Counted from the first letter of the stretch, positions 10,487 through 60,298 are shown. The stretch: 64,000 bases of DNA from Candidatus Doudnabacteria bacterium (GCA_963768175.1 CAVYGQ010000001.1:5908-69907); one strand, 5' to 3'. The notes: generated by a model from the letters alone, not told the origin. Numbers and translations are program-made.

Positions 10487-10571
10487 GGCGTCATTCCGAG
10501 CGTAAAAGTAAACAATTCGCGGGGAATCTGTCTTTTTGAGATCCTTCACCCTTCGGGTTCAGGATGACGCC
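10487..10571. repeat. MITE-like element, family GGCGTCATYCTGA...TCAGGATGACGCC (copy 1)
   Basis: Terminal inverted repeat ggcgtcattccgag...tcaggatgacgcc, with the internal GATCCTTC/AGAGATYC core shared with the other copies. Confidence 0.7.
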
Positions 10572-10610
10572 ATAATTTAAGTTATGGCGGGTTTTTGCTA
10601 AGATTAACAC

Positions 10611-11489
10611 ATGATCTTAGTTATCTCATCTAAAAAAGTTTACGCTGCGAAAAGGCTGGCATGGGAAGCAGGCATTAGGAATCAAGAATTGCGGATTATG
10701 GATATGCAGGATTTGATTACCTGTAATTTTCAGATTGATCCAAACAAGTTTGATGCCCTGTACATCCGCGATCCTTATTTAAAAGACAGTCCAAAATACA
10801 CTCCGCAAATCGTCAAACTTGCAAAAAAATTTAAAGCCGCGGGCAAAAAGGTTGTTGATTCCGCGATTGCCGACGGGGAACTCGGCCAAGGCAAATGGGC
10901 GGATTATCAGAGGCTTCAAAAAGCCGGCTTGCCAATTCCAAAGACCGGTTTATTGTCTGACTACCCACTACCCACTATTCACTACCCACTAATTCTCAAA
11001 TGGACCTACGGCTTTAAGGCAAAAAATGTTTTTCTGATAAAAAACCAGCAACAGCTAAAAAATATCCTGCCCCTGCATCTCAAAAAAGAATGGCTGGTTC
11101 AGGAATTTATTAAAGCGGATTATGAATATAAAGTTATTACCGTCGGATACAAAGCATTGCCGGTGGTGTTGAGGTTTTCCACCAGAGGCGGATCCGCCTC
11201 TGGTGGAAAGATTAAAGACAACGGTTTTAGGACGGATTTCAAATCCGCATGCAGCGTGCCCATTTATGGGCGATCCAGACAGCCGATGAATCGGCACGCT
11301 ACCATTGTTAAATTTGCCGAAAGGGCATCGAAAATCTTAAACCGCGAACTGGCCAAAGTTGACATTTTGGAAGCCAAAGGCAAATTCTATATTCTGGAAG
11401 TTAACCGCTTCCCCGGCCTTAAGAGTTTTGAACAATTGACAGGCTATAATGTCTTTAAGGATTTTTTTAAATATCTTGTTTTAAAATGA
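10611..11489 (+). CDS. ATP-grasp family protein (RimK-like ligase)
   Basis: EWLVQEFI...YEYKVITVG ATP-grasp core. Carries the in-frame palindrome insert at 11178-11208 encoding GGSASGG. Confidence 0.65.
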   Translation: MILVISSKKVYAAKRLAWEAGIRNQELRIMDMQDLITCNFQIDPNKFDALYIRDPYLKDSPKYTPQIVKLAKKFKAAGKKVVDSAIADGELGQGKWADYQRLQKAGLPIPKTGLLSDYPLPTIHYPLILKWTYGFKAKNVFLIKNQQQLKNILPLHLKKEWLVQEFIKADYEYKVITVGYKALPVVLRFSTRGGSASGGKIKDNGFRTDFKSACSVPIYGRSRQPMNRHATIVKFAERASKILNRELAKVDILEAKGKFYILEVNRFPGLKSFEQLTGYNVFKDFFKYLVLK

Positions 11490-11605
11490 CTTGCGTAATT
11501 CGTCCGTTTAAGTTATAATGAGTTTATTAAATTAATTCCACGCGCGGGAAATTTACTGCCCGTAGCGTGCAGAAAGGCGCATCGATTACATCGGGCGAAA
11601 AGTAA

Positions 11606-11881
11606 ATGCTTACTCCTAGAGAGAAGAATAATATCATAAAGAAATTCCAGACCCACAAGGACGACACTGGCAGCCCCGAGGTCCAGGTTGCCATACTGAC
11701 CAAGGAAATTGAGCAGGTTTCCGAGCATTTAAAAACCCACCGCAAAGACAACCACTCCCGCCGGGGGCTGCTTAAAATGGTCGGCAACCGCAGAAGGCTT
11801 TTGCGCTATTTAAAGAGTGAGGACGAAAAGCGTTTTGAAAAACTTGCCGAAAAACTAAAGCTTAAAGTGGATTTACAATAA
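11606..11881 (+). CDS. rpsO: 30S ribosomal protein S15
   Basis: [10 protein letters not shown]...[29 protein letters not shown] signature. Confidence 0.92.
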
Positions 11882-11955
11882 TTTTCTATTATAGTAAATC
11901 CATCCCGAACGCAGTGAGGGATCTCTTAAATTTATTTAAATTAAACACAAATACT

Positions 11956-12369
11956 ATGGTAGTTAAAAGTTCAAATTTTGAGGATTTTGACAAAGAGTGG
12001 ATGGAATTAGGCAAACAAATTTGTCAGGCAGTATATATCCATCCCATGATCCGAAAAATTAAGGATTCGTTGCAAAAAAAAGGATTTTTGACGCTGGAAG
12101 AAAAAAGCGAGTTTATTAATACTTGTGATAAGGTTAAATATGAAGTTATTTACGCCAAATTCGGTGATGAGCAATCAGAAGGGTATAAGAAGTTCAGCGA
12201 AAGTTGGAAACAGTGGTTTCAGGAAAAGGGTGTCGGCAGCAACCAAAACCGTGGCCAGCGCAACAGCGTGGAGCATATTTTATTCGGCAGTACGCCTGAT
12301 CCGGTGCGATTTTTAACCAAGTTTGAGGAAGAGGTAGTAAATAACCATAATCATAATCATAATCATTAA
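11956..12369 (+). CDS. Hypothetical protein with a C-terminal (NH)n tail, inserted between rpsO and pnp
   Basis: ORF with start moved to the ATG at 11956, because the upstream part overlaps a partial MITE copy. No recognisable domain. Confidence 0.4.
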   Translation: MVVKSSNFEDFDKEWMELGKQICQAVYIHPMIRKIKDSLQKKGFLTLEEKSEFINTCDKVKYEVIYAKFGDEQSEGYKKFSESWKQWFQEKGVGSNQNRGQRNSVEHILFGSTPDPVRFLTKFEEEVVNNHNHNHNH

Positions 12370-12531
12370 TTAGTAACTATTAAAGTTTCGGATGGTGAAT
12401 AGGTAGAGCGCGGATTTTTTAAGTCCACGTTTACATATTTGTCATCCTGAAATTCACCCCGGTCAAATAAAAATTTCTTTGAAATTTTTGATTCGCTTCG
12501 CGAATCATTTGACGGGGTAAAAAGGATTAAG

Positions 12532-14802: not shown

Positions 14803-14817
14803 TTTAAAAATAATTAA

Positions 14818-15006
14818 ATGATAAAATTTATGGGGACACAACCAGGGGTAGGAAATCCGGAGGCTGGGGGCTTTCATCCGGAATATATGGATCAACCGGT
14901 AGAAATTACTATGAAAGGTCCTGATGGGGTCAGATCTTTTAGATCGGTCAAGGAAATGTTAGATACTTTGAAGGAAGAAAATGCAAACAGGGATAGATGG
15001 AATTGA
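14818..15006 (+). CDS. Small hypothetical protein (62 aa)
   Basis: ORF only, with a weak RBS. Confidence 0.25.
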   Translation: MIKFMGTQPGVGNPEAGGFHPEYMDQPVEITMKGPDGVRSFRSVKEMLDTLKEENANRDRWN

Positions 15007-15089: not shown

Positions 15090-15175
15090 GTCATCCGGGC
15101 GTCATCCTGAGGCCGAAGGCCGAAGGATCTCAATAAAGAGATTCTTCGCCGCCAAAGGCGGCTCAGAATGACGCC
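15090..15175. repeat. MITE-like element, GGCGTCATCCTGA family (copy 2), immediately 5' of tgt
   Basis: gtcatccgggcgtcatcctgagg...gctcagaatgacgcc. The ORF-track ATG at 15168 lies inside its terminal repeat. Confidence 0.7.
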
Positions 15176-15185: not shown

Positions 15186-16514
15186 ATGGCGTATTTTGAT
15201 TTAATAAAAAAAGTTTCGTCTGATAACGCGCCAACAGGCAGAGGTGTCCCCTCTGGAAGAGGGGACACCTCTGCCGCCAGAATCGGGATAATCCACACCG
15301 CGCACGGGGACGTAAAAACGCCGGCGTTTTTGCCTATTGGCACCAAAGGCACGGTTAAATCGGTCACCTCGGAAGAACTTAAGTTTTGGGGCGCGGATAT
15401 GATACTGGCCAATACCTATCATTTGTGGCAGCGTCCGGGCGACGGGCTTATTTATAAAGCTGGCGGCCTGCATAAATTTATGAACTGGAAAGGGCCGATT
15501 TTTACCGACAGCGGTGGGTTTCAGGTTTTTTCTTTGGCCAAAATGCGCAAGGTCATGGAAGCTGGCGTGTTGTTCCAGTTTGATCTGGACGGCAGGCAGG
15601 AAATTTTGTCGCCGGAAAAATCCGTGCAAATACAGGCCAACTTAGGCAGCGACATTGCTTTAATTTTGGACGATTTTCCGGGGTATCCATTTGAGTACGA
15701 GCGATCAAAAGAATCTATTGCGCAAACCAAGCGCTGGGCCGAGCGTGCGCAAAAAGAATATCAAAAAATAATGACGACCATATCCGCCGGAGGCGGATCC
15801 GCCTTTGGCGGAAATCCCGGGCAGAAATTGTGGGGGATTGTGCAGGGAGCTTCGTTTCCCGATTTGCGCAAACAGTCGGCAAACGATATGGCTAAGTTAG
15901 GATTTGAAGGATTTGCCATTGGCGGAGTGGCCGTGGGGGAGCCGCACGAAGAAATGATGAAAGCCGTGGAAGCATCCGTGCCTTTTTTGCCGGAATCCGC
16001 GCCAAAACATCTGTTGGGCGTGGGTACCCCTTTTGACATTGTGCAGGCAGTAAGCCGCGGCTGTGACACTTTTGATTGCGTTATCCCAACGAGGGAAGCG
16101 CGCCATGGTAGGCTTTATGTGTCCGCAAAAATCCACCCCTCTCTAACCCTCCCCCTCAAGGGGAGGGAAATTAAAGGAAAGCCAGGCGGTGTTGTTCCTC
16201 CCCCTGGAGGGGGGAGGCTAGGTGGGGGTGATGAATCTGTTGAAGGTTACTCAACAATTGACATCCGGCTTGAAAAATACAAAGAAGATTTTACGACAAT
16301 AGACAATACTTGCGATTGTTATTTATGCTTAAATCATACCAGATCTTATCTTCGCCACCTGTTTGCCGGCGGCGAGCCGTTGGCTATCCGTTTAGCTACC
16401 ATGCATAATCTGCGTTTTTATTTAAACTTGATGGCCAAAATCCGTAAAGCCATAGAATATGATTATTTTAACGAGATGGCGGAAAATTACAAAGATTATA
16501 CTAATATGGTATAA
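15186..16514 (+). CDS. tgt: Queuine tRNA-ribosyltransferase (tRNA-guanine transglycosylase), carrying in-frame palindromic inserts
   Basis: GIIHTAHGDVKTPAFLPIGTKGTVK and the zinc subdomain CDCYLC...H. In-frame inserts at 15238-15273, 15784-15811 and ~16135-16230. Confidence 0.85.
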   Translation: MAYFDLIKKVSSDNAPTGRGVPSGRGDTSAARIGIIHTAHGDVKTPAFLPIGTKGTVKSVTSEELKFWGADMILANTYHLWQRPGDGLIYKAGGLHKFMNWKGPIFTDSGGFQVFSLAKMRKVMEAGVLFQFDLDGRQEILSPEKSVQIQANLGSDIALILDDFPGYPFEYERSKESIAQTKRWAERAQKEYQKIMTTISAGGGSAFGGNPGQKLWGIVQGASFPDLRKQSANDMAKLGFEGFAIGGVAVGEPHEEMMKAVEASVPFLPESAPKHLLGVGTPFDIVQAVSRGCDTFDCVIPTREARHGRLYVSAKIHPSLTLPLKGREIKGKPGGVVPPPGGGRLGGGDESVEGYSTIDIRLEKYKEDFTTIDNTCDCYLCLNHTRSYLRHLFAGGEPLAIRLATMHNLRFYLNLMAKIRKAIEYDYFNEMAENYKDYTNMV

Positions 16515-16677
16515 TAAGTAAAATTATGAGGCAGTAATGTTGCATCACAATGGGCACCATTGTGTTGCACAATGGTGCCCATTGTATGGATCAACGATGA
16601 CAGAAAAAAATGATTTATCCAACTCCGCCACCCGCCGTCGCCAAGGCTATGGTGGACAAGAGGCTACGTCGGACAAG

Positions 16678-18095
16678 ATGGAAAAAATAGTATCTTTGTG
16701 CAAAAGGCGCGGGTTCATTTTTCCGGGCTCGGAAATTTACGGCGGGTTTGCCAACTCCTGGGATTACGGACCCGTAGGGGTGGAATTAAAAAATAATATT
16801 AAGCAGCTTTGGTGGGAGCGGTTCGTGCACCAGCGGGACGATATGGTCGGCATAGACGCGGCTTTGATAATGAAGCCGGTGGTCTGGGAAGCCAGCGGGC
16901 ATTTAAAAAATTTTTCTGATCCTTTGATAGAATGTAAAAAATGCCATAACAGATTTAAACCTGATCAGCTAGAGGGTATAAAACAAATTGAGAATTTGCC
17001 TGGGGAGTATCCTGCAGGTAAAAATGTCCATTCTGGTTTGGGATCAGGCGTGAGCATCGTTGGAGAAGATAATAAAAGAATTTTTATAAGCGAAAATACT
17101 AAATGCCCCACTTGTGGACAAAAATTTGAATTGAGCGATAAGCCTAAACAATTTAACTTAATGTTTAGAACCCATATCGGCCCTGTAGAATCTGATGAAA
17201 ACATCGTCTATTTCCGTCCGGAAACCGCGCAAGGGATGTTCGTACAATTTAAAAATGTTTTGGACACCAGCCGCAAAACCGTTCCGTTTGGAATTGCGCA
17301 GGTCGGTAAGGCTTTCCGCAACGAAATTACGCCTGGCAATTTTATTTTCCGCACGCGCGAGTTTGAACAAATGGAAATAGAGTATTTTATCCCGGTGCCA
17401 AAGTTGACCAAGACTGGAATAAGTATTTTGAAGATTGGCGGAAGCAGATGCTTTCCTGGATTAAAGATGATCTTGGTATTAAACTGAACCATATCCACGA
17501 GCTGGAAGTGCCGGAAAATGAGCGCGCGCATTACAGCAAACGAACCATTGATTTTGAATATGATTTTCCTTTTGGAAAATCGGAGTTGTATGGGTTGGCT
17601 TATCGCGGCGATTTTGATTTGGCGAACCATCAAAGAATGTCAGGCCAATCTTTGGAATATACCGACCCGCAGACCAACGAAAAATATCTGCCGCACGTAA
17701 TAGAGCCGACTTGGGGCGTGGACAGGAGCGTTTTGGCGGTTTTGTGCGAGTTTTATCGCGAGGAAGAAGACCGCGTGGTTTTGGCTTTGCCGCCAAAATT
17801 GGCTCCTTATAAAGTCGCGGTTTTTCCGCTTTTAAAGAACAAGCCGGAGCTTGTCGCTAAAGCAAAATCAATTTACGATGAATTGCGGAAATCTTTTGCT
17901 ACGGCCTGGGACGAGCGCGGCAATGTGGGCAAGCGTTATTATAGCCAGGACGAAATCGGCACGCCGTTTTGCGTTACCGTGGATTTTGACAGCTTGGAAG
18001 ATGGTATGGTAACCGTCCGCAACCGCGACAGCAAAGAACAGCCGAGGGTGAAGATTGAGGAATTGAAAAATTATTTGTTGGATAAAACCTTTTAA
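16678..18095 (+). CDS. glyQS: Glycyl-tRNA synthetase (alpha2 type), split over two frames by an apparent 1-nt indel near 17395-17405
   Basis: The 16537..17487 and 17448..18095 ORFs together give a complete GlyRS. Frame 1 (…EIEYFIPVPK) joins frame 0 (VDQDWNKYFEDWRKQM...). Start placed at MEKIVSLCKRRGF. Confidence 0.85.
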
Positions 18096-18097
18096 AG

Positions 18098-18400
18098 ATG
18101 GCAGAACGTTTTTCTTACCAAGAAAGTATGAGTTTTGAGCAACAAGCTATTGTTGCTAGATTAGAAAATTTGTGGGGTAGCGTAGAAGATGCTACAGCAA
18201 AATCATTCCCTCATATGTCGGAAGATGATCTTCCATATAATTATCAGCAAGATTATAAGACAATTAAGCATGAAATGTTGGAGATAATTAAGAAGATGAA
18301 ATCGGATCGGAATTATATACCTAGCGAGGAAACTACGCTTAACGATATTAGAATGCAGGTATTGGAATTTTTGGAAAGAGATGAATCAAAGAAATATTAA
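18098..18400 (+). CDS. Hypothetical protein
   Basis: 100-aa ORF with no recognisable domain. Confidence 0.35.
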   Translation: MAERFSYQESMSFEQQAIVARLENLWGSVEDATAKSFPHMSEDDLPYNYQQDYKTIKHEMLEIIKKMKSDRNYIPSEETTLNDIRMQVLEFLERDESKKY

Positions 18401-19571
18401 AATTTTACAGGGTAAATTATTAAACCCTATTCTGATTAAGAAAAAAGAAAACCTGTTGTATTTAACAGGTCGTTCTTTTATGCAGGGGTATCTTTTGGTA
18501 AAACCCTCCCGGCGTCATTCTGAACGAAGTGAAGAATCTCAAAGGAAGAGATCCTTCGGCCGCCAAAGGCGGCCTCAGGATGACGCCGTTGTGTTTTTTG
18601 GGGACGGGCTGGAAAAAGCAGAAGGAATACATACTGACATACTTAAGAATGTAAGGATGTATTTAGGCAAACAGAAAGTGTTGGATTTGGAAGATGAGTT
18701 TACTTTTGCGGAATATAATTATATCAAGTGCAAGTTAAAAGATGCAAAGCGCAAGGTAAAACTACAGCATGTCAAAAGTCCCGTAGATTTTCAAAGAGCT
18801 TTAAAAGATGAGCAGGAAATCGCGTTTGTTAAGAAATCAATGCAAATAGTGGAAAGGGTCTTTGGTTTAGTGCGAAGGGAAATCAAGAAGCCAGGGATAA
18901 CGGAAATTAGGCTGGCAAATTTTATTAAATCGTCAGGATTAAAAATGGGCGCGCAGGACATTAGTTTTCCGCCGATTGTGGCAAGCGGTCAAAACGCCGC
19001 GGTGCCCCACCACGTTCCGTCTTCAAAGCGCTTAAAAGCAGGGGAATCTATAATTTTGGATTTTGGGTTTAAATATAAAAATTACTGCAGCGATTTTACC
19101 CGCACGGTTTTCTTAAAAAAAGTGCCGCCAAAACTGGAAATGGTTTATAATCAGGTGGAAAAGGCGTATAAAGAGTGCATGTCATTGCGAGGAGTGCAGC
19201 CGACGAAGCAATCTCATCAAAGAGACAAATTGCCGCGCCCCTCGGATGCACTCGGGGCTCGCAATGACAGACCTGTGACAGGTAACGAACTTTACCAAAA
19301 ATCAGTTTCTGTTTTAGCCGAAAAACATCTGGATAAATATTTTATCCATTCCTTGGGTCATGGCACCGGCCTGGAAATCCACGAATTGCCTAATTTATCG
19401 CCAAAATCCAAAGACATTCTGCAAGACGGCATGGTTTTTAGCATAGAACCTGGCGTTTATATCCCAAACCAAGGTGGCGTAAGAATAGAGGATTTGGTAT
19501 ATTTAAAAGGGAATAAAGTTAATAAGTTTATAGATATCTCAACGAAATTGGAGAGCAATATAATAAAATAA
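18381..19571 (+). CDS. M24 family metallopeptidase (Xaa-Pro aminopeptidase / PepP-like) with two in-frame mini-element insertions
   Basis: ISFPPIVASGQNAAVPHH...DFTRT...HSLGHGTGLEIHE...GGVRIEDLV metal-binding motifs. In-frame inserts at 18511-18587 and ~19196-19280. Confidence 0.8.
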   Translation: MNQRNIKILQGKLLNPILIKKKENLLYLTGRSFMQGYLLVKPSRRHSERSEESQRKRSFGRQRRPQDDAVVFFGDGLEKAEGIHTDILKNVRMYLGKQKVLDLEDEFTFAEYNYIKCKLKDAKRKVKLQHVKSPVDFQRALKDEQEIAFVKKSMQIVERVFGLVRREIKKPGITEIRLANFIKSSGLKMGAQDISFPPIVASGQNAAVPHHVPSSKRLKAGESIILDFGFKYKNYCSDFTRTVFLKKVPPKLEMVYNQVEKAYKECMSLRGVQPTKQSHQRDKLPRPSDALGARNDRPVTGNELYQKSVSVLAEKHLDKYFIHSLGHGTGLEIHELPNLSPKSKDILQDGMVFSIEPGVYIPNQGGVRIEDLVYLKGNKVNKFIDISTKLESNIIK

Positions 19572-23754: not shown

Positions 23755-25275
23755 ATGGAAAAATTTTACATCACCACAACCTTGCCTTATGTAAACTCCG
23801 ATCCTCATTTGGGGTTTGCTTTAGAAATGGTCCAAGCCGACGTTATTGCCCGTTATCATAAGGATATTTTAAAGCAGGAAGTATTTTTTAACACGGGCAC
23901 CGATGAGCACGGGCTGAAAATTTTCCGCAAAGCCAAAGAAGAAGGCAAGGAAATCCAAAGCTACGTTAATGAATACGCGGAAAAGTTCAAAAAATTAATG
24001 CCGGCTCTGGGTATAATGCCGGATGTCCATTTTATCCGTACCACCGACCCGCACCATCTTGCCGCTTGCCGGGAGTTCTGGATAAGGTGTTTTAATAATG
24101 GCGATATTTATAAAAAAATCTATAAAGTTAAATATTGCGTAGGCTGCGAGCTGGAAAAAACCGAGAGCGATTTGGACGAAAACGGACGATGCTTGATCCA
24201 TCCGCATTTAAAAATTGAGCTTATAGACGAAGAAAATTATTTTTTCAGGTTTTCCAAATACCAACAGCCGCTTTTGGAATTGTACGGAAAAAATCCGCAA
24301 TTCGTGGTGCCGGATTTTCGCTTTAACGAAATTAAGCAATTCGTAAAATCCGGTTTGCAGGATTTTTCCGTCTCCCGTTTAAAATCCAAAATGCCCTGGG
24401 GCGTGCCGGTGCCGGATGACGAAAACCATGTAATGTATGTGTGGTTTGACGCGCTGATAAATTATGTGTCAACTTTGGGTTGGCCCTCCTCCGCTAAAGC
24501 TCCGGAGGGCAAGCCGTCAGAATTCGATCAATTATGGGGAACGCGCGAACACCCCAATTGCATACAAATCGCCGGCAAAGATAATATCCGCCAGCAGTCG
24601 GCCATGTGGCAAGCCATGCTAATGTCCGCCGGCCTTCCCAATTCCAAACAAATAATTATCCACGGCTTTATTAACAGCGGCGGGCAAAAAATGTCCAAAT
24701 CTTTGGGCAACGTGGCGGATCCGTATGTGATTATCGATCAGCTTAAATCTAAGGGCTTAACCGACGAACAAGCCATAGACGCCCTGCGCTATTATCTTGT
24801 GCGCGAAGTTTCCACCTTTGAAGACGGCGATTACACTTGGGAAAAGTTTGCGGAGAGCTATAACGCGGGCTTGGCGAATGGTATTGGCAATTTAACTAGC
24901 AGGATTATGAAGATGGCAATTAGTAACGATGTAAGTCCTATCAGTCCTATCAGTCCTATCAGTCCTATCAGTCCTATTTCGTCCTATCAGTCCAACCAGT
25001 TCTTGGATAACTACGAGCTCCAAAAAGCTTTCGACGCCGTTTGGCAAAAAATAAAAGCTTGCGATGAGTTTATCCAAAAAAACGAGCCATTCAAAGTTAT
25101 AAAGACAGACAAAGAAAAGGCCACGAAAGATATACAACATTTGTTATCGGAACAGCATCAGATCGCAACCGATTTAATTCCTTTCCTTCCCGCAACCAGC
25201 GAAAAGATATTAGCCGTTTTAAAAAATCCTAAATTGGAAAACATTCCAAAATTATTTCCGAGAATTGATTTTTAA
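23755..25275 (+). CDS. metG: Methionyl-tRNA synthetase, containing an in-frame (SPI)n microsatellite
   Basis: PHLGFA (HIGH-like) and KMSKSLGNV motifs. A 9-bp tandem repeat (agtcctatc) at 24934-24990 encodes SPISPISPISPIS. Confidence 0.85.
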   Translation: MEKFYITTTLPYVNSDPHLGFALEMVQADVIARYHKDILKQEVFFNTGTDEHGLKIFRKAKEEGKEIQSYVNEYAEKFKKLMPALGIMPDVHFIRTTDPHHLAACREFWIRCFNNGDIYKKIYKVKYCVGCELEKTESDLDENGRCLIHPHLKIELIDEENYFFRFSKYQQPLLELYGKNPQFVVPDFRFNEIKQFVKSGLQDFSVSRLKSKMPWGVPVPDDENHVMYVWFDALINYVSTLGWPSSAKAPEGKPSEFDQLWGTREHPNCIQIAGKDNIRQQSAMWQAMLMSAGLPNSKQIIIHGFINSGGQKMSKSLGNVADPYVIIDQLKSKGLTDEQAIDALRYYLVREVSTFEDGDYTWEKFAESYNAGLANGIGNLTSRIMKMAISNDVSPISPISPISPISPISSYQSNQFLDNYELQKAFDAVWQKIKACDEFIQKNEPFKVIKTDKEKATKDIQHLLSEQHQIATDLIPFLPATSEKILAVLKNPKLENIPKLFPRIDF

Positions 25276-25303
25276 ACCTTCAATCATAAATCTTAAATCT
25301 GTA

Positions 25304-26299
25304 ATGCTGATAGACACCCACGCCCATGTTAATTTTCGCAGTTTTAAAGACGATGCCAAGGAGACTTTGCAGCGGGCGCTTGACAGTGGCACTTGGGTAA
25401 TTAATGTCGGTTCGCAAATAGATACGTCGCGCCAGGCTGTGGAGCTGGCTAATCAGTTTGAAAAAGGAATTTACGCGGTGGTCGGGCTTCACCCGGAGCA
25501 TACGCATTCAAAATTTGTGGATGAGGAAGAAACGCACTTTTTAACTCGCGAAGAAAATTTTGACTACGAAAATTACAGGAAGCTGGCGCAAGATCCCAAA
25601 GTTGTAGGCATAGGGGAATGTGGACTTGACTATTATCGTTTGCCCGGAGGTGTTGAACCGCAAATCATTAAGCAAAAGCAAAAAGACGCATTTAGGTTAC
25701 AGGTAAAATTGGCGAAAGAATTAAATAAAGTTTTGGTCGTTCACAGCAGGCCGGAAAAAGACAGCGAAGAATTATTTAACGATTTAATTACGATCCTTGA
25801 TGAAGAACTCCTCCCTCGGCGTCATTCTGAGGGAGTGCAGCCGACTGAAGAATCTCAATCCAAGAATAAAGAGATCCTTCCCCCGGCTCAAGGCCGGGGT
25901 CAGGATGACGCCCTTCTTCGTTTTGAAGTTCATAGTTTTACCGGTAGCCCGGAATCTTTGCAAAAATTTCTTGACCGCGGCGCGTACGTCTCTTTTAACG
26001 GCATTATCACTTTTGGCCGACCAAAAAATAAAAATAGCCGGCCATCCGCCGAAGCTTTAGCGAAGGTGGATGATAAAACCGGCAATATGGAAAAATTGGT
26101 AAAACTGGCCCCGCTTGATAAAATAATATTGGAAACTGATTGCCCGTATTTGGCACCGGTGCCAAATCGCGGAAAAAGAAATGAACCCAGTTTTGTAAAG
26201 TTTGTGGCTAATAAGGTCGCGGAGATTAAGGGTTTATCAGTTGATGAAGTTGCCGAAGAGACAACTAAAAACGCTAAGCAATTATTCCTTCTCCCTTGA
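25304..26299 (+). CDS. tatD: TatD family hydrolase/DNase, with a ~95-nt MITE copy inserted in-frame
   Basis: MLIDTHAHVNF...GLHPEH...ETDCPYLAPVP motifs. In-frame insert at 25818-25912. Confidence 0.85.
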   Translation: MLIDTHAHVNFRSFKDDAKETLQRALDSGTWVINVGSQIDTSRQAVELANQFEKGIYAVVGLHPEHTHSKFVDEEETHFLTREENFDYENYRKLAQDPKVVGIGECGLDYYRLPGGVEPQIIKQKQKDAFRLQVKLAKELNKVLVVHSRPEKDSEELFNDLITILDEELLPRRHSEGVQPTEESQSKNKEILPPAQGRGQDDALLRFEVHSFTGSPESLQKFLDRGAYVSFNGIITFGRPKNKNSRPSAEALAKVDDKTGNMEKLVKLAPLDKIILETDCPYLAPVPNRGKRNEPSFVKFVANKVAEIKGLSVDEVAEETTKNAKQLFLLP

Positions 26300-26322
26300 G
26301 GGAGAAGGTGGCCGGAGGCCGG

Positions 26323-26676
26323 ATGAGGGGGATAGAAAGCCAAAAACTAATAACAATTGCCAAAAAGTTAAGGCAAAATCAAACACCTTGGGAAGCTAAA
26401 CTTTGGCAGTTGTTAAGAGGCAGGAGGTTTAGAAACTTCAAATTTAGAAGGCAATACCCAATCGGAAAATACGTAGCTGACCTTTGTTGTTTAAGTAAAA
26501 AATTGATTATTGAATTGGACGGAAGCGGTCATAATATGCCGGAAAATAAAGCTTACGATTTCAAGAGAAATAGGTTCTTTACACAGAAAGGTTATAAGGT
26601 TTTAAGAGTTTGGAATTCTGAACTAGATAATAATTTAGAGGGTGTGCTGCAGGAAATTTATAAATTTTTATCTTAA
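26323..26676 (+). CDS. DUF559 (Vsr-like endonuclease fold) protein
   Basis: KLWQLLRGRRFRNFKFRRQYPIGKYVADLCCLSKKLIIELDGSGH signature. Confidence 0.7.
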   Translation: MRGIESQKLITIAKKLRQNQTPWEAKLWQLLRGRRFRNFKFRRQYPIGKYVADLCCLSKKLIIELDGSGHNMPENKAYDFKRNRFFTQKGYKVLRVWNSELDNNLEGVLQEIYKFLS

Positions 26677-26680: not shown

Positions 26681-26760
26681 CCCCTCACCCGTCACCCTTC
26701 CGCCTCCGCCAAGGCTACGGCGGACAGGTCGGGTGACACCCTCTCCCTAAGGGAGAGGGG
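26681..26760. repeat. 80-nt element CCCTCACCCGTCACCC..CGCCAAGGCTACGGCGGACAGGTCGGGTG..CTCTCCCnnnGGGAGAGG (intergenic copy)
   Basis: Near-identical to 39081-39160, which lies inside purH. Confidence 0.7.
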
Positions 26761-29926: not shown

Positions 29927-30604
29927 ATGGTAATTATTGATTACAAAAAACAATATCACAAACAAATTATCGCCGCGGCGGTAAAAGCTTTAAAAAGCGG
30001 CAAAGCAGTCGTTTATCCAACGGACACCAGCTATGGTTTGGCCGTGGATGCGGGTAACATTAAGGCTATAAAAAAACTATATAAAATTAAAGAACGCCAA
30101 AGCACCCAGCCCGTTCATATAGTGGTGCCGTCTGTGGCTTACGCGAAAAGCATCGTGCAGTGGAATAATTCAGCGTTAAAACTTGTAAAAAAGTTTTGGC
30201 CCGGACCGCTGACTTTAATTTTGTGCCTGAAAGTTAAAGGTATGGGATTAAAAATGCTATCGGCCAAAACTGGAAGCCTTGGTTTAAGAATGCCGGACAA
30301 CCTGATCGCGATGGACTTAGCAAGATATCTTGGCCGGCCGATTACGGCGACCAGCGCCAATGTATCGGGCCGGGCAGATTGTTACTCGGTCAAAGAAATA
30401 ATCGGACAGTTTTCCGCCAAAGGCGGATCCGCCTCCGGCGGAAAAAACCAAAAATACAAGCCCGACATTATCATAAATGCCGGCAAATTGCCCAAGCGTA
30501 AGCCCTCCACTTTAGTCCGTGTTTTTGACGATGTGGTAAAAGTCTTGCGCCAAGGTCCTGTTACTGAAAAAGAAATATACAAGGCTTTAGATATTAGATA
30601 TTAA
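29927..30604 (+). CDS. tsaC: L-threonylcarbamoyladenylate synthase (YrdC/TsaC/Sua5 family), with an in-frame GGCGGATCCGCC palindrome insert
   Basis: AVVYPTDTSYGLAVDA...KERQSTQP...GPLTLIL motifs. Insert at 30413-30440 encodes GGSASGG. Confidence 0.8.
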   Translation: MVIIDYKKQYHKQIIAAAVKALKSGKAVVYPTDTSYGLAVDAGNIKAIKKLYKIKERQSTQPVHIVVPSVAYAKSIVQWNNSALKLVKKFWPGPLTLILCLKVKGMGLKMLSAKTGSLGLRMPDNLIAMDLARYLGRPITATSANVSGRADCYSVKEIIGQFSAKGGSASGGKNQKYKPDIIINAGKLPKRKPSTLVRVFDDVVKVLRQGPVTEKEIYKALDIRY

Positions 30605-32439: not shown

Positions 32440-32540
32440 GGCGTCATTCTGAGGCAGTAGCAGCCGACGAATAATCTCGTCATCGTCAGTTGATTGAGAT
32501 CCTTCATTCCTCGGATGCACTCGGGATTCAGGATGACGCC
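32440..32540. repeat. MITE-like element, GGCGTCATYCTGA family (copy)
   Basis: ggcgtcattctgagg...ttcaggatgacgcc. Confidence 0.7.
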
Positions 32541-46868: not shown

Positions 46869-47139
46869 ATATAGTTGTCATTGCGAGGAGCCTCGAGTGC
46901 ATCCGAGAGGCGACGAAGCAATCTTATTTTGTGTCATTCCGGAATTTTGCGGAGCAAAATATCCGGAATCTAGATTCCCGCTTTCGCGGGAATGACATGA
47001 ATATTCTGGAAAAAGAAAAAGCCCGCTGCGCCGTGGAGGTTCGCAGTAGGCAGTTGAGCCGCAGTTCCGTCGGAACCGCCGGGAGGCGGGTGGGGGAAAA
47101 GGGCGCGGATATGTGGCGACCACTCGGGCAGTGTCGGGG

Positions 47140-53866: not shown

Positions 53867-53967
53867 GGCGTCATCCTGAGTCCGCTCTAAGCAAATCTAG
53901 GCGGACGAAGGATCTCATCAAAGTTTAAGAGATTCCTCGGTCGGCTGCACTCCCTCGGAATGACGCC
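53867..53967. repeat. MITE-like element, GGCGTCATCCTGA family, between rplC and rplD
   Basis: ggcgtcatcctgagt...ctcggaatgacgcc. The ORF-track start of rplD at 53960 lies inside it. Confidence 0.7.
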
Positions 53968-53989
53968 GGATGACGGAAGTTATGAATCT

Positions 53990-54669
53990 ATGAAGACGAA
54001 TCTTTACAATCAAAAAGGTGAAACTATCGGCGATGTGGAATTAAACCCAAAGATTTTTGAGGTTAAACCCAACGAACATCTTTTAGCCGAAGCGGTAAGG
54101 ATACAATTATCCAATTCCCGCCAGGGCACCAGCAATACTAAAACCCGCGGCGAAGTATCCGGCGGCGGCAAAAAGCCCTGGAAGCAAAAAGGCACCGGCC
54201 GCGCCCGCGCAGGCTCAAGCAGAAGCCCGATTTGGCGCCACGGCGGCATTACTTTTGGCCCCGCTCAAACCGCAATTGGGAATTAAAAATCAACAAAAAG
54301 GCCAAGACCGCGGCGCTGTTTATGTCCCTTTCCGACAAGGCCAAAGAAAAGCAGTTTTTTGTCATTGACCAAATTGTTTTAGAAAACCCCAAGACCAAGG
54401 AATTCGTCGCAGTGTTAAAAGGTTTGGAAGCGAAGCTTTCCGTCGAAGGCGGATCCGCCTTTGGCGGAAAGAATTTGGGCAAGAAGCAAATGCTTATTCT
54501 TCCAAGAAAAGACGCAAAGCTAGTCCGTGCTACCAGCAATTTACAATCGGTCAATACCGTTTTGGCAAACAGCCTGAACCTGGTGGATGTAATAACGGCT
54601 AACAGCATTATCGCGCTTAAAGACAGTTTGCCGGTCATAGAGAAAGTATATCTTAAAAAAAGCAAGTAA
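53990..54669 (+). CDS. rplD: 50S ribosomal protein L4, with an apparent 1-nt frameshift near 54265-54290 and an in-frame GGCGGATCCGCC insert (54445-54467)
   Basis: Frame 2 [10 protein letters not shown]...[13 protein letters not shown] then frame 1 ...[20 protein letters not shown]... The shift lies at gggaattaaaaatc. Confidence 0.85.
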
Positions 54670-54670
54670 A

Positions 54671-54768
54671 ATGACAAAAACGACGGAAATGACAAAAATG
54701 AGCAAAAATAAACTACAGTTCTAATTTTTGTCATTTATTTAATTTTTTTAATTTTTGTTCATTAATTT
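54671..54768. repeat. Repeat family R1 (~97 bp: ATGACAAAAA..GAAATGACAAAAATGAGCAAAAATAAACTACAGTTCTAATTTTTGTCATTTATTTAATTTTTTTAATTTTTGTTCATTAA), immediately 5' of the rplW start. A near-identical copy lies at 61279-61378, 5' of rpsN.
   Basis: Two copies are >90% identical. Each contains the internal inverted repeat ATGACAAAAAT / ATTTTTGTCAT. Confidence 0.75.
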
Positions 54769-55150
54769 TATGGCCATTTTTTCCAAAAAACCAGAAACTG
54801 ACGAGAAGGTTGAATATAAAACGGATGACAAACCTTCCGCTACTGTCGGCAATGGCCCGACAATAAAAATCCCTACCATTTTAATCCAGCCCAGAATTTC
54901 CGAAAAAGCGGGTAGCTTAGCGCAAATGAACAAGTATGTTTTTTTGGTCGCAAAAGCCGCCAATAAAGTAGAGGTCAAAAAAGCGGTGGAAGCGGTTTAT
55001 AAAGTCAAAGTCACGCAAGTTAACGTTATAAATAATTATGGGAAGAAAAGAAATTATGGACAGACAAAAGGCGTAACCTCGGATTTTAAAAAAGCAATAG
55101 TAACACTAAAAGCTGGAGATAAAATAGAAGGGATAACGGAGACTATTTAA
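54769..55150 (+). CDS. rplW: 50S ribosomal protein L23
   Basis: ...VFLVAKAANKVEVKKAVEAVYKVKVTQVNVIN. Start placed at ATGGCC by analogy with the identical repeat/start junction at rpsN. Confidence 0.85.
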
Positions 55151-55246
55151 ATGACAAGAATGACATGATTGAGCAAGAATGACAAGGATCGCTGCAGTCA
55201 AATCATGTCAATCATTTAAATCTTTTAATTCATGTTCAATTAATCT
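55151..55246. repeat. Repeat family R2 (ATGACAAGAATGACA...CTGCAGTTAAATCATGTCAATCATTTAAATCTTTTAATTCATGT), immediately 5' of the rplB start. Other copies at 57775-57868 (5' of rpsC) and 62739-62837 (5' of rplR).
   Basis: Three copies share a >80% identical core ending within ~20 nt of the start codon. Confidence 0.75.
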
Positions 55247-56083: not shown

Positions 56084-56152
56084 GCAAACAACCAAGGGGC
56101 ATCCTTGGTCTGAGGACTAACTAAGTCAAAGGATGCCCCTTGGGTCAAAGTT

Positions 56153-56773: not shown

Positions 56774-56780
56774 TAAATAT

Positions 56781-57113
56781 ATGTCTAGAAGCTCAAAAAA
56801 AGGACCATACGTAGACCCAAGAGTACTCAAGAAAGTAATGGCGGGCAAAGCGGGCAAGACCCAGATTAAGACCTGGTCTCGCGCTTGCAGTATTGCGCCG
56901 GAGTTTGTGGGTTTTACCTTTTTGGTGCATAATGGCAGGACGCACGTGCCGGTTTTTGTGACGGAAAATATGGTTGGCCACAAATTGGGCGAATTTTCCT
57001 TAACCCGTAAGTTCCAGAGGCATGGCGGCAAGATGGCCAAAGAGCAGGAAATGGCCAAAGCCGAAGCCGAGAAGGCAAAGCTGGCCGCGGCAAAAGAACC
57101 GGAAAAAAAATAA
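56781..57113 (+). CDS. rpsS: 30S ribosomal protein S19 with a K/A/E-rich C-terminal extension
   Basis: [18 protein letters not shown]...[23 protein letters not shown]. Confidence 0.92.
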
Positions 57114-57138
57114 GACAAATAGGACCTATTAGACCTAT

Positions 57139-57765
57139 ATGACCAATAAGGCATCAACAACCGAATCAGGAAAGTTAGTCACGGCGCACGCCCGCGATCT
57201 TCATATTGCTCCCAGAAAAATGCGCTTGGTAACTAACTTAGTCAAAAATATGAACGCCTTGGATGCCTTGGTCCAGCTTCAGCATACCGACAAAAAGGCT
57301 TCGCCGATGTTAATTAAGTTAATCCAGTCTGCCGTGGCGAACGCCAAGAATAATTTTTCGCTTGACCCCCAGCATTTGTTTATTAAGGAATTGACCTGTG
57401 ATATGGGCAAAGTAATGAAGCGCTACTTTCCCCGCGCCCGCGGCAGCGCTTTTGAGATTAGGCGCAAAATGAGCCATGTGAACATTGTTTTGGAAGAGCG
57501 CAAGAAAGCCAAAGCCAGCAAGGTCAAGGCTGGATTTCTTACAAAGCCGAAAGCCGAAGAGAAAAAAGTCCAGAATGTAGATCAGCAGGCTGCCGTTAAT
57601 AAAGAACCCTCCTTCGCTCCCGACTTCGCTAAGGCTTCGTCGGGCAAGAAAGCTACGGAGGGCAAAGAAGTCAAAAAGAGCCAGGTGTTTAGGACGGACG
57701 AGCAGAAAAAAATGAGTACCGCGGCAAATAAGAGAAGGCTGTTTAACAGGAAGTCCGGAGAGTAA
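57139..57765 (+). CDS. rplV: 50S ribosomal protein L22 with a ~90-aa K-rich C-terminal extension containing the DFAKASSGKK repeat
   Basis: ARDLHIAPRKMRLV...QSAVANA L22 core. The extension includes EPSFAPDFAKASSGKKATEG (57600-57665). Confidence 0.9.
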   Translation: MTNKASTTESGKLVTAHARDLHIAPRKMRLVTNLVKNMNALDALVQLQHTDKKASPMLIKLIQSAVANAKNNFSLDPQHLFIKELTCDMGKVMKRYFPRARGSAFEIRRKMSHVNIVLEERKKAKASKVKAGFLTKPKAEEKKVQNVDQQAAVNKEPSFAPDFAKASSGKKATEGKEVKKSQVFRTDEQKKMSTAANKRRLFNRKSGE

Positions 57766-57868
57766 AATAATTGACAAAATTGACATGAATGAACAAGAAT
57801 GACAAAAATTTACTGCAGTTAAATCATGTCAATCATTTAAATCTTTTAATTCATGTCCAATCAAACCT

Positions 57869-58552
57869 ATGGGTCATAAGATAAATCCGACATCGTTTAG
57901 AATGAATATTACCGAAGGCTGGAAATCCAGATGGTTTTCCAAGGGGCATTTTTCCAAGCAGCTCATGGAAGACGTAAAAATACGTGAATATTTGGAACTG
58001 CACTTAAAGAAAGCCGGCTTGGTAAGAATTGATATTGAGAGATTAAACGATGGAACAATCACGGTAATCATCAGAACCACCAAACCCGGGTTGATTATTG
58101 GCAAAGGCGGCGCAGGAATTGAGGAATTAAAAAAGAAAGTTAAAACCAAATTGGGAATTAAGCAGGAGCTCAAGATTAATATAGAGGAAGTCCGCGACGT
58201 GAATTTGCAGGCCCAGGTTATTGCCAACGGCATTGCCGAACAGCTGGAAAAGCGCGTGGCTTTCCGCAGGCTGATGAAACAGAGCCTGGAGCAGATTATG
58301 AACGCCGGAGCCAAGGGTGCCAAAGTCGCTATTGGCGGACGGCTAAACGGGGCGGACATTGCCCGCACGGAGCATTTGTCGAACGGCAAAATTCCTCTTC
58401 ACACCCTTCGCGCCGATATCGACTTTGCGAGAGCGACTGCATTTACAACCTACGGCACGGTCGGGATAAAGGTTTGGATTTATAAAGGAGATGTGTTTGA
58501 GGACAAGAAATCCGGCGGTAAGACTAAAGTTATTGAATCGGAGAAAGTTTAG
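57869..58552 (+). CDS. rpsC: 30S ribosomal protein S3
   Basis: MGHKINPTSFR...KH domain... Confidence 0.95.
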   Translation: MGHKINPTSFRMNITEGWKSRWFSKGHFSKQLMEDVKIREYLELHLKKAGLVRIDIERLNDGTITVIIRTTKPGLIIGKGGAGIEELKKKVKTKLGIKQELKINIEEVRDVNLQAQVIANGIAEQLEKRVAFRRLMKQSLEQIMNAGAKGAKVAIGGRLNGADIARTEHLSNGKIPLHTLRADIDFARATAFTTYGTVGIKVWIYKGDVFEDKKSGGKTKVIESEKV

Positions 58553-58670
58553 TAGATATCTGTCTTTACTAACTACTAATCTTTACGAATATACTAAACC
58601 GTGAAGTCAGCATCAGTATATTGGTACCAATTAGTAGTTAGTAAATTAAGTAAGATAATCAAGTATATCT

Positions 58671-59087
58671 ATGTTTATACCGAAAAAATTAAAGCACAGA
58701 AAGCATCATCGCGGGACCACTAAAGGGCAGGCGACGGCCGGCCAGGAAATTGCGTTCGGCCAGTATGCCTTAAAGGCTTTGGAAAGTTCCTGGGTAACGG
58801 CCCGGCAAATTGAAGCCGCCAGGCGCGCCATGACCAGATACGTCCAGCGCGGCGGTAAAATTTGGATTCGCGTGTTTGCCGATAAGCCCGTAACTTTGCA
58901 CGGCAACGAAAGCCCGATGGGCGGCGGAAAAGGCGCGGTGGACCATTTTGTCAGCGTGGTTAAAAAAGGCAAAATATTATTCGAAATGGACGGGGTTACC
59001 AAGGAGCAGGCCCAGGAAGCCATGAGGTTAGCCAGCTACAAGTTACCGGTTAAATCCAGATTTTTAACAAAGGAACATCAAGGGTAG
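58671..59087 (+). CDS. rplP: 50S ribosomal protein L16
   Basis: [15 protein letters not shown]... Confidence 0.95.
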
Positions 59088-59160
59088 GTTAGTAGTATGT
59101 TGTAAGTTGGTAAGCAGCAAGTTACTTACAACTCTACAACTTAGAACTTACAACTTTTTT

Positions 59161-59355
59161 ATGAAGTACAAAGAACTTACAATCAAGACCGAAGCTGAAG
59201 TCAGGCAGCTGCTAATGGAGCTTCGCGAGAAGAGCCACGATTTATCGGTAAAGCTCAAGTTGAACCAGCTTAAAAATACCAAAGAGTTGGGCGCGGTAAA
59301 AAAAGACATCGCGAAGATAATGTTTTACTTGCACTCACGAAAAAGTAAACAATAG
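59161..59355 (+). CDS. rpmC: 50S ribosomal protein L29
   Basis: MKYKELTIKTEAEVRQLLMELREK...; start moved to the ATG at 59161. Confidence 0.8.
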   Translation: MKYKELTIKTEAEVRQLLMELREKSHDLSVKLKLNQLKNTKELGAVKKDIAKIMFYLHSRKSKQ

Positions 59356-59367
59356 CAATCCAGTTTT

Positions 59368-59444
59368 GGCGTCATCCTGAACGCAGTGAAGGATCTTAAA
59401 TATAGAGAAAAGAGATTCTTCGCGTACCGCTTAGGAATGACGCC
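59368..59444. repeat. MITE-like element, GGCGTCATCCTGA family, between rpmC and rpsQ
   Basis: ggcgtcatcctgaacgcagtgaaggatct...ttaggaatgacgcc. Confidence 0.7.
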
Positions 59445-59461
59445 GAAGGGAAAATCAATTT

Positions 59462-59707
59462 ATGGATAAAATTTCAAAAAAACAACAGCTCATCGGCATC
59501 GTCGTGTCTGATAAAATGGATAAGACCGTCGTGGTTAAAGTTGACATGAGAAAGCGCCACCCCAAATATAAGAAAGCTTATACCATTTCCAAAAAATTCA
59601 AGGCGCATGATGAAAACGAAGAGTACAAAATCGGCGACAGGGTGGTTATAGAATCCATTCGGCCGATGAGCAAAGAAAAGAAGTTTAAGGTTATAAGTAA
59701 AGCATAG
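59462..59707 (+). CDS. rpsQ: 30S ribosomal protein S17
   Basis: [16 protein letters not shown]... Confidence 0.95.
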
Positions 59708-59819
59708 ACCGCTGAATGGACGCTGATAGGGACGCTGAAAAAACGCTGAGAGCATAATCTCAGCTCAGCGACATGTCAGCGTAGTAATCAGCGACCAATC
59801 AGCGGAATAAGCAATATAT

Positions 59820-60212
59820 ATGCTACAAGTACGATCCTACATTAAAATAGCGGATAACACCGGCGCGAAAGTCGTCAATGTTTTCAGCGTCAACGGGAAA
59901 AACAGCAACCGGTTTGCCAGGATTGGCGATGTTGTAGCCGGCTCGGTAAGGCAGGTATCGCCGAATGCCAATATAAAAAAAGGCGATAAAGTTTATGCGG
60001 TAATTGTCCGTTTGCGCAAGGAAATAAGGCGCAAGGACGGTTCATACATCCGTTTTGACGAGAATGCCGGCGTGCTTGTAGACAAAGAATCGGGCGAGCC
60101 CAAAGGTACCCGCATTTTCGGCCCCGTCCCCCGGGAAATCCGCGAGAAGGCCAAAGGTAATTACGAAGATGGGTTTAAAAAAATAGTATCATTAGCTCCC
60201 GAGGTCATTTAA
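59820..60212 (+). CDS. rplN: 50S ribosomal protein L14
   Basis: [17 protein letters not shown]... Confidence 0.93.
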
Positions 60213-60225
60213 GAACTACCAGATT

Positions 60226-60298
60226 GGCGTCATCCTGAACGCAGTGAAGGATCTCCTCAAAGGAAAAGAGATTCCTCGCCCCGCTCGGGATGACGTCG
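60226..60298. repeat. MITE-like element, GGCGTCATCCTGA family, between rplN and rplX (near-identical to the copy at 59368-59444)
   Basis: ggcgtcatcctgaacgcagtgaaggatctc...ctcgggatgacgtcg. Confidence 0.7.

Follow-up and report, generated by a model that had tools for sequence, protein, structure and literature searches.

The 64,000-nucleotide stretch of DNA from Candidatus Doudnabacteria bacterium analyzed here (GCA_963768175.1, CAVYGQ010000001.1:5908–69907; hereafter the window, to which all coordinates refer and which is the scope of the repeat census) carries a family of short palindromic elements that lie both between genes and in frame within two protein-coding genes, pepP and tatD. Each element is a head-to-head (HH) dimer, with the tags outside, of two CGTC-tagged stem-loops of the repetitive extragenic palindrome (REP) type, and most of the dimers are heterodimers. 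The main family of the window is a derived member of the CGTC-tagged REP superfamily, and not a new kind of element. The initial annotation of this DNA had taken the copies for MITEs (miniature inverted-repeat transposable elements); the explanation that accounts best for the observations, and that is very probably correct, is that they are selfish or formerly selfish REP dimers that have spread without target-site duplications (TSDs) and survive in genes as in-frame inserts.

Anatomy of the Elements

Each half of an element follows a single plan, which reads from the tag inward GG, CGTC (the unpaired tag), ATYCT (one strand of a 5-bp stem), GA, a variable, perfectly paired hairpin, GA, AGRAT and CTC (the unpaired tail), the GA/GA pair forming a 2 × 2 internal loop between the 5-bp stem and the distal hairpin. 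Single-stranded DNA (ssDNA) folds of the halves show the same arrangement, with a 4-nt tag and a 3-nt tail that stay unpaired and, between them, the 5-bp stem, the 2 × 2 GA/GA loop and a distal stem-loop. GG-CGTC and GACG-CC stand at the start and end of all eight full copies in the window, and sister units carry TGTC. Among 119 scorable halves, which come from the window together with 100 related loci, the Y:R pair of the stem is Watson–Crick in every one (66 C:G and 53 T:A), and the CTC tail is present in 92. On average, 2.8 bp close the distal segment, compared with 0.42 bp in shuffles, and its sequence is diverse (GGCC-GAA-GGCC, GCCGCC-TTT-GGCGGC, AC-GAA-GT, CCCCGGCC-TTGA-GCCGGGG and others). 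The window contains 20 YGTC-AT stem-loop units, mostly arranged as outward-tagged pairs, whereas Markov shuffles contain about 1.9. Heterodimers that combine a T:A half with a C:G half account for 57 of 77 copies from the candidate phyla radiation (CPR); since the two halves differ in this way, the hairpin formed by the whole element has one T.G wobble and one A.C mismatch, and the linked inner A and C are found in 48 of the 48 scorable copies of this T.G / A.C form.

The 13-bp terminal inverted repeat (TIR) described in the initial annotation is conserved as a pair of inverted termini; it is composed of the GG, the CGTC tag and the 5′ strand of the stem. Since either half forms a REP-type stem-loop autonomously and has a covarying stem of its own, the TIR is a by-product of two REPs placed head to head. 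The internal core reported alongside it (GATCTY...) is reinterpreted here as the 3′ strand of the stem plus the CTC tail of each half.

Two superfamilies of REPs, with the unpaired tag GTAG or CGTC, were distinguished by Di Nocera, De Gregorio and Rocco (2013, BMC Genomics 14:522; PMC3733652). In the published CGTC REPs, the tag is CGTC, TGTC or CCTC, the stem is 8–9 bp long and opens with A-T, T-A, the loop is 4–5 nt long (some families have atypical loops) and the 3-nt tail is mostly CCA; these units are mostly found as HH dimers with the tags outside and short spacers, and frequently as heterodimers (Di Nocera et al., 2013). The window family resembles them in the unpaired outer CGTC or TGTC tag, which is seen in the window copies and in the ssDNA folds, in a stem that opens A-T, T-A directly after the tag in 119 of 119 halves, in the 3-nt unpaired tail (CTC in the window family and CCA in copies from Sphingomonas), and in the pairing of units with their tags outward, mostly as heterodimers. 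The Sphingomonas copies, whose 13-nt termini are identical, are canonical CGTC REPs (CGTC-ATCCTGAA-CTCGT-TTCAGGAT-CCA), and unit 46974–46997 of the window is a canonical REP of the CGTC-1 type (TGTC-ATTCCCGC-GAAA-GCGGGAAT-CTA, with an 8-bp stem and a GAAA loop). The published stem and loop geometry fits both of these exactly, and the main window family departs from it in its 5-bp stem, GA/GA loop and variable distal hairpin.

Census of the Family and Its Distribution Across Phyla

The half-site GGCGTCATCCTGA, with at most two mismatches, occurs 15 times in the window, compared with an expectation of 0.69, and this count was reached in 0 of 100 shuffles. An nhmmer profile trained on 57 CPR copies recovered precisely eight full copies (E 3e-18 to 4e-10), the same eight that underlay the earlier claim of at least eight copies in 64 kb, and in addition a divergent copy in pepP (19181–19268, E 5e-5) and weak remnants at 46877–46949 and 11897–11951 (E 0.21). 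Some of the earlier positions had to be revised. The copy placed at 15090–15175 exists but starts at 15098, positions 15090–15097 being an additional partial GTCATCCG; the partial copy at ~11895 is the weak remnant of one half mentioned above; that at ~12440 shares only its first 11 bases, TGTCATCCTGA, with the family and belongs to another palindrome. The two divergent variants proved to be a sister-family dimer at 19180–19269 (formerly ~19196–19280) and a singleton followed by a dimer at 46876–46997 (formerly 46880–46990). The right halves of the copies at 59368 and 60226 are degenerate. As expected from their hairpin-forming appearance, seven of the eight copies fold as RNA far better than shuffles (z −3.3 to −8.3), and the copy at 10487 has a z of −2.4. 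In an independent assembly, a Logan contig from run ERR10755942 matches window positions 24948–26317, with the tatD copy included, at 100% identity; therefore, the in-frame insert in tatD is not an assembly artifact. The nearest named relatives of the window TatD and PepP proteins belong to Candidatus Doudnabacteria and Patescibacteria.

A scan of one genome per species in 185,579 species, in which both 13-nt termini were required with a gap of 45–75 nt, identified at least 101 stretches, compared with an estimated chance expectation of ~0.03. Among the matches listed are Doudnabacteria, Saccharibacteria, other Patescibacteria, Sphingomonas and its relatives, Terriglobia/Acidobacteriaceae, Gemmatimonadales and Burkholderiales. 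The interior GAAGGATCT...AGATCCTTC is common to the CPR, acidobacterial and gemmatimonad copies, whereas those of Sphingomonas have short hairpins of the canonical kind. The five phyla reported in 2013 (PMC3733652) do not include Patescibacteria, Acidobacteriota or Gemmatimonadota. Searches of the literature for the DNA motif, for the peptide motif, and for CPR in combination with MITE, Rickettsia palindromic element (RPE), REP doublet forming a hairpin (REPIN) or REP-associated tyrosine transposase (RAYT) returned nothing specific on such repeats in CPR; the presence of CGTC REPs in these bacteria, and the fact that different repeat families have repeatedly colonized the same loops of proteins, are apparently new.

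Copies Read in Frame Within Proteins

The initial annotation stated that the copies in pepP and tatD are read through in frame, and this is borne out by the conserved Pfam domains (M24 and TatD, respectively) found on both sides of the inserts. The state of the insertion sites was compared in 120 aligned orthologs of each protein. In TatD, the segment LDEE...LRFEVHS is 20 residues or shorter, i.e., without insert, in 69 of 120 orthologs, including 46 in a 15-residue basal state, and 28 residues or longer in 39, of which only nine are of the RRHSE...QDDA type, the others being unrelated repeat-derived peptides. Site 1 of PepP is empty in 45 of 120 orthologs, in which it forms a 16-residue β-turn (GYLLVKK-ND-VVFFGDG), and holds inserts of at least 8 residues from several families in 64 (three of the RRHSE type); site 2, where the window has its TGTC variant, lacks an insert in only 18 of 120 orthologs, and 23 have the ...ARND type. 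The insert peptides are absent from most orthologs, so that conservation of these segments in distant orthologs lacking the repeat, which in the initial annotation would have refuted the proposal, is not what is seen. Compared with an empty-site ortholog in a sister genome (L102; LDEE-KTEG-LRFEVHS), the window tatD shows a net gain of 96 nt for an element of 95 nt. In an AlphaFold2 model of the window TatD, the barrel core has a predicted local distance difference test score (pLDDT) above 90 and the insert one of 51–62, the latter being modeled as coil between a helix and a strand, which is consistent with a tolerated surface loop. The TatD product has a second, unrelated repeat-derived insert at residues ~238–258, the sister-family copy in pepP encodes roughly SLRGVQPTKQSHQRDKLPRPSDALGARND, and across Doudnabacteria the same pepP and tatD loops carry inserts of many unrelated palindrome families.

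Other CPR proteins hosting in-frame copies include MnmA, CarA, Lgt, LeuRS, GT4 glycosyltransferases, YchF, a UvrD/AddA-like helicase and UvrC, all of them products of genuine housekeeping genes. The MnmA copies occupy the same site in two genomes, as do the GT4 copies, and in CPR loci the family is also found near the C-terminal end of an O-antigen ligase and that of a Mur ligase. A length of 2 mod 3 is seen in 10 of 14 genic copies, these ten being read as xRRHSE...QDDA, compared with 7 of 35 non-genic copies (Fisher p 0.0018); the genic copies contain no stops in the host frame and use essentially two element frames, RRHSE...QDDA or GVIL...QNDA. They are taken as translated and not spliced because biases of frame and length are expected only for translated inserts, and they would add 26–32 probably disordered residues to the host protein.

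A 32-position profile of the insert gave only eight matches among 1.8 billion representative proteins, the query being too short for a database of this size; these matches include Bacteroidetes-type CHSERSEES...AQNDT repeats and a RecJ-like fragment. The CHSERSEES...ILRYAQNDT peptides (P0243, P0244 and P0248) lie in tandem inside other proteins and apparently translate a related GTCATTCTGAGCGAAGCGAAGAATC-type repeat, so that the in-frame habit of the superfamily extends further. A separate observation concerns LeuRS of a Patescibacteria metagenome-assembled genome (MAG; AMAZON01, L039 2187–5393), which has both an in-frame copy and a domain of ~180 residues of the serine-hydrolase / alpha-beta-hydrolase type after the editing domain. 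That one family should serve as both an intergenic element and a protein insert had been regarded as unusual; this is, however, documented for RPE-4 and RPE-6 and for intragenic CGTC and GTAG REPs (PMC3733652), and at least two other palindrome families in the window do likewise.

Copies in Operon Spacers

The S10/spc ribosomal-protein operon has three of the copies in its spacers. The reported proximity of copies to start codons was confirmed, as ~10–25 nt separate the end of an element from the likely start in each of tgt, rplD, rpsQ and rplX. With its right end, ...ATGACGCC, the element contributes an ATG, and calls of open reading frames (ORFs) consequently start tgt (15168) and rplD (53960) inside the repeat; the true starts of both genes are probably located 18–30 nt further downstream. 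A search of Rfam at gathering thresholds and at E ≤ 1 identified no family matching the elements, and the resemblance between copy 15098 and a hammerhead core (CUGA..GGCCGAAGGCCGAA) was dismissed as coincidental.

Origin of the Elements and Alternative Explanations

A classical MITE is a deletion derivative of an insertion sequence (IS) encoding a DDE transposase, and its parent IS would recognize the 13-bp TIR and mobilize the derivative in trans. Small size (73–101 bp), a conserved 13-bp inverted terminus, multiple copies and a strong hairpin are all in keeping with such an origin, but the junctions are not: TSDs were tested for and are absent, with direct junction repeats of k = 1 in 8 copies compared with ~21 expected, of k = 2 once, and of k ≥ 3 in 0 of 77, and position −1 is a pyrimidine and position +1 a purine in these 77 copies, such that the palindromic symmetry runs on into the flanks. 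No longer element bounded by GGCGTCATYCTGA ends is present in 104 loci and the window, lone half-sites pointed to no parent IS in the 104 loci (which do not amount to an exhaustive genome search), a scan of viral contigs for the family gave 0 matches, and a plasmid BLAST search with a Sphingomonas copy gave two weak matches and no transposase. As each half is, moreover, a self-contained stem-loop with its own covarying stem, unpaired tag and tail, and identical termini enclose interiors that are not the same in different phyla, the MITE label is not supported, such a derivation being very unlikely. The dimer architecture, the lack of TSDs and the conserved stem imperfections resemble REPINs, which raises the alternative of a dedicated RAYT whose single gene in each genome has the same REPs on its flanks. 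RAYT-like proteins with conserved HUH and YxxH motifs are indeed encoded in Doudnabacteria and Saccharibacteria (NCBIfam NF047646, E 1.8e-18, at 66.9 bits, under the curated 80-bit cut-off; Pfam Y1_Tnp, E 5.8e-6). However, the window family flanks none of the 83 RAYT loci examined, which comprise three from CPR (L102, L089 and L035) and 80 metagenome homologs: all three CPR genes are flanked by GTAG-type REPs (GTAGGGGCGG..., GTAGTTTGCCGATTTATCGGCC), the metagenome homologs with detectable flanking repeats are GTAG-flanked as well, and GGCGTCATYC is found in 0 of the 80. In the literature, CGTC REPs likewise apparently lack a dedicated transposase, and no RAYT flanked by them is described (PMC3733652). 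Mobilization by a dedicated RAYT is thus considered unlikely, and GTAG-type RAYTs may cross-mobilize CGTC units.

The elements might instead be host-beneficial RNA or DNA signals, such as mRNA stabilizers, processing sites, attenuators or translation modulators, that are kept by selection and are not selfish. REPs can stabilize upstream mRNA (a point discussed in PMC3733652), the hairpins are of high stability (−35 to −49 kcal/mol when folded as RNA), and the three S10/spc spacer copies and the several copies ending 10–25 nt before start codons would suit such a role. Against this, the same sequence is found in frame in more than 10 unrelated proteins, its presence at a given site varies among orthologs, and the elements have no Rfam match and, lacking a U-tract, are not intrinsic terminators. 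A signal function as the reason for the presence of the family is accordingly judged quite improbable, and secondary exaptation of individual copies is compatible with it. Finally, if the genic copies were excised before the protein is made, in the manner of introns or inteins, PepP and TatD would remain undecorated. Strong structure, together with the known excision of insertions in CPR rRNA genes, speaks for this, but stop-free genic copies, two frames and one enriched length class (p 0.0018) would be needless if the copies were spliced; the elements are also too small for group I or group II introns, match no ribozyme or Rfam family, and lack the size and motifs of inteins, so that excision is exceedingly improbable.

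Several points weigh against the assignment of the elements to mobile CGTC REPs. The halves of the window family have five Watson–Crick pairs, the GA/GA loop and a variable distal hairpin in place of the published uninterrupted stem of 8–9 bp and loop of 4–5 nt, and their tail is CTC in place of the CCA of the published families. Halves with the distal module GGGAGTGCAGCCGAC do not self-fold, and their pairing with the partner half is better. Descent from a few master copies, and not selection for pairing, could in part explain the perfect Y:R linkage. In addition, no mobilizing enzyme was found in the 64-kb window, the 83 RAYT-like loci or the related loci.

Genes in the vicinity of the repeats were also inspected. 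In the sister genome, a gene encoding a RAYT-like Y1 transposase (L102 3874–4287) is located directly downstream of tatD, with inverted GTAG REPs (GTAGTTTGCCGATTTATCGGCC) on its flanks; the matching slot of the window (26296–26676) holds a gene for a DUF559 protein (Vsr-like endonuclease), which starts inside one palindrome and is followed by another (26682–26759), and no link between this gene and the repeats was demonstrable. The RAYT-like genes of two 'Saccharibacteria' MAGs (L089 3756–4286 and L035 599–1123) harbor GTAG-type REPs both on their flanks and, in frame, within the coding sequence of the transposase itself. The tyrosine integrase gene beside copy 10487 (9216–10442) was set aside as a source of mobilizing activity; it is regarded as the integrase of a tRNA-Arg-linked island, and nothing supports a link to the repeats.

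Individual Copies and Other Features of the Window

The positions of the copies, their host genes and other repeats are given in Table 1. Both distal hairpins of copy 15098 are perfect (GGCC-GAA-GGCC and GCCGCC-TTT-GGCGGC), the left REP of copy 60226 is identical to that of copy 59368 over 31 nt, and the feature at 46876–46997 has a fold z of −5.1.

TABLE 1. Elements of the CGTC-tagged family, their host genes, and other repeats in the window
Feature	Position	Strand	Composition	Context	Score
HH dimer	10487–10571		units 10489–10527 (+) and 10541–10569 (−)	intergenic; integrase start 10442 (− strand), RimK-like gene 10611	E 1.3e-12
Half remnant	11897–11951		ATCCC-GA-ACGCAGT-GA-GGGAT-CTC, CGTC tag lost		
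HH dimer	15098–15175		units 15100–15128 (+) and 15141–15173 (−)	~10 nt 5′ of likely tgt start	z −8.3
pepP (M24 Xaa-Pro aminopeptidase family)	18381–19571	+	two inserts	host gene	
HH heterodimer, 77 nt	18511–18587	+	encodes RRHSERSEESQRKRSFGRQRRPQDDA	in frame in pepP, residues 44–69	
Sister-family HH dimer	19180–19269	+	TGTC tags, ATTGC/GCAAT stem	in frame in pepP, site 2	
tatD (TatD-family hydrolase)	25304–26299	+		host gene	
HH heterodimer, 95 nt	25818–25912	+		in frame in tatD, residues 172–203 of the 331-aa product	
HH dimer	32440–32540			intergenic; methyltransferase gene (end 32353), glyA/SHMT (start 32585)	E 3e-18
Singleton REP and HH dimer	46876–46997		singleton TGTC-ATTGC REP 46876–46922, then dimer 46932–46969 (+) and 46974–46997 (−)	downstream of fusA	
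HH dimer	53867–53967		reversed relative to the tatD copy	between rplC (end 53856) and rplD	
Left REP and degenerate right half	59368–59444		intact left REP 59370–59394	rpmC (L29, end 59355), rpsQ (S17, start 59462)	
Left REP and degenerate right half	60226–60298		intact left REP	rplN (end 60212), rplX (start 60321)	
Second palindromic family, GGATCC-centered	11173–11212, 15778–15817, 30408–30447, 54434–54473		TTTCCGCCAAAGGCGGATCCGCCTCCGGCGGAAA		
Third palindromic family, 33-nt units	16628, 24481, 35230, 35434, 39096, 57616; 26696 and 49763		GCTTCCGACTTCGCTAAAGCTACGTCGGACAAG	26696 and 49763 intergenic	
AT-rich inverted repeats	54655–54768, 55145–55221, 57760–57852, 58565–58645, 60643–60724, 61277–61373, 61578–61672, 62737–62836		e.g., AAATGACAAAAA...TTTTTGTCATTT	S10/spc intergenic spacers	

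The GGATCC-centered family is read in frame as ...GGSA(F/S)GG... in the RimK-like gene, tgt, the Sua5/TsaC gene and the gene for L4, and the same peptide is found in UvrC of locus L090. The third family is read as A(P/S)DFAKA(S/T)S... in a split class II aminoacyl-tRNA synthetase gene, in the genes for MetRS, ParB (twice) and PurH, and in the C-terminal tail of L22. The occurrence of these further families in frame in Tgt, L4, Sua5/TsaC, MetRS, ParB, PurH and L22 suggests that in-frame palindrome insertion is pervasive in the Doudnabacteria lineage. The AT-rich inverted-repeat elements, found in nearly every intergenic spacer of the S10/spc operon, include two copies that are 99% identical across 97 nt, and several contain TTGACA-like hexamers.

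Two genes, rplD (53960–54669) and the class II aminoacyl-tRNA synthetase gene (16537–18095), each consist of two overlapping ORFs related by a single frameshift; the shift in rplD lies in a C homopolymer (GGCCCCGC, one C short), and the site of that in the synthetase gene was not pinned down. These frameshifts look like assembly indel errors rather than marks of pseudogenes, and the sequence therefore has indel errors of single bases in other places. The region 71–8082 is occupied by two very large ORFs (829 and 1864 aa) composed of periodic repeats of ~123 nt and ~255 nt (...NGNVGIG...) with no Pfam match. The ORFs have a G+C content of 53%, compared with ~44% in the rest of the window, and end just before the tRNA-Arg gene (8492–8566) and the tyrosine integrase gene; they may represent an island of foreign origin that encodes giant surface proteins of repetitive structure.

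Proposed Mode of Spread and Implications

If the elements are selfish or formerly selfish CGTC-type REP dimers, they would spread without TSDs, likely via a single-stranded hairpin intermediate that is handled in trans by a non-adjacent enzyme, the leading candidate being a putative HUH/Y1 transposase. Copies inserted into genes would survive purifying selection only if they keep the frame, are free of stops and lie in a tolerant surface loop, and copies in operon spacers would be co-transcribed as strong hairpins, with a possible effect on mRNA stability or processing. A more far-reaching proposal, which is doubtful, is that the pepP β-turn, the M24 loop of pepP and the helix–strand loop of TatD have been colonized many times independently by different REP families, through targeted insertion into pre-existing palindromes that continues to generate loop variation. 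Such REP-into-REP homing or replacement would constitute a genome-wide source of protein-loop variation in CPR bacteria.

The CGTC REPs and RPEs are a long-standing puzzle, being widespread and present inside proteins while the enzyme that moves them is not known. Dense and well-structured families in CPR genomes of ~1 Mb extend the superfamily to new phyla, and indicate that 'streamlined' genomes tolerate pervasive selfish palindromes even in ribosomal-protein operons and essential enzymes. The small gene inventory of these bacteria eases the hunt for the mobilizing factor; if the doubtful proposal of repeated loop colonization holds, the long-missing enzyme of CGTC REPs could be sought in a genome of less than 1 Mb, a smaller search space than any so far, and the identical 13-nt termini in CPR, soil Acidobacteriota and Sphingomonas would record a recent exchange of mobilizing machinery between episymbionts and potential hosts. 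In practical terms, the inserts inflate the lengths of proteins, give rise to spurious ORFs and start codons, and break short-read assemblies, and annotators of CPR genomes should mask them.

Comparison With Known Repeat Systems

Small size, inverted termini, co-transcription with neighboring genes and occasional in-frame insertion are shared by the window family with bacterial MITEs such as the Correia element of Neisseria (NEMIS), ERIC, RUP and Nezha; these elements, however, have TSDs (TA for Correia) and IS-like ends, neither of which is found in the window family. The REPINs and their RAYTs, reportedly described by Nunvar et al. in 2010 and by Bertels and Rainey in 2011, are similar in forming an inverted REP doublet and a long imperfect hairpin, in lacking TSDs and in their proposed movement as ssDNA, but they are built of GTAG-type REPs with a cognate RAYT flanked by the same REP, whereas the RAYT-like genes found here have only GTAG REPs, and never the window family, on their flanks.

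The RPEs, which are said to have been reported by Ogata et al. (in Science in 2000 and in Genome Res in 2002), resemble the window family in being palindromic, in residing in a small genome, in occurring both between genes and in frame in housekeeping genes at structurally tolerant surface sites, and in having no known transposase. They differ in that RPE-1 is ~100–150 bp long and unrelated in sequence, in that the host is an intracellular alphaproteobacterium and not a CPR bacterium, and in that several unrelated families occupy the same loops across orthologs in Doudnabacteria; a link in sequence exists only through RPE-4 and RPE-6, which have been assigned in the literature to CGTC-4 and CGTC-1, respectively. 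The CGTC superfamily that contains these two RPEs also includes dRS3 of Neisseria, and its members are found in frame within uvrC, uvrD-like and tRNA-synthetase genes (Di Nocera et al., 2013). The window family shares with the CGTC REPs the in-frame genic units, with no adjacent transposase at any copy examined, and differs from them in a frequency of genic copies that is apparently much higher.

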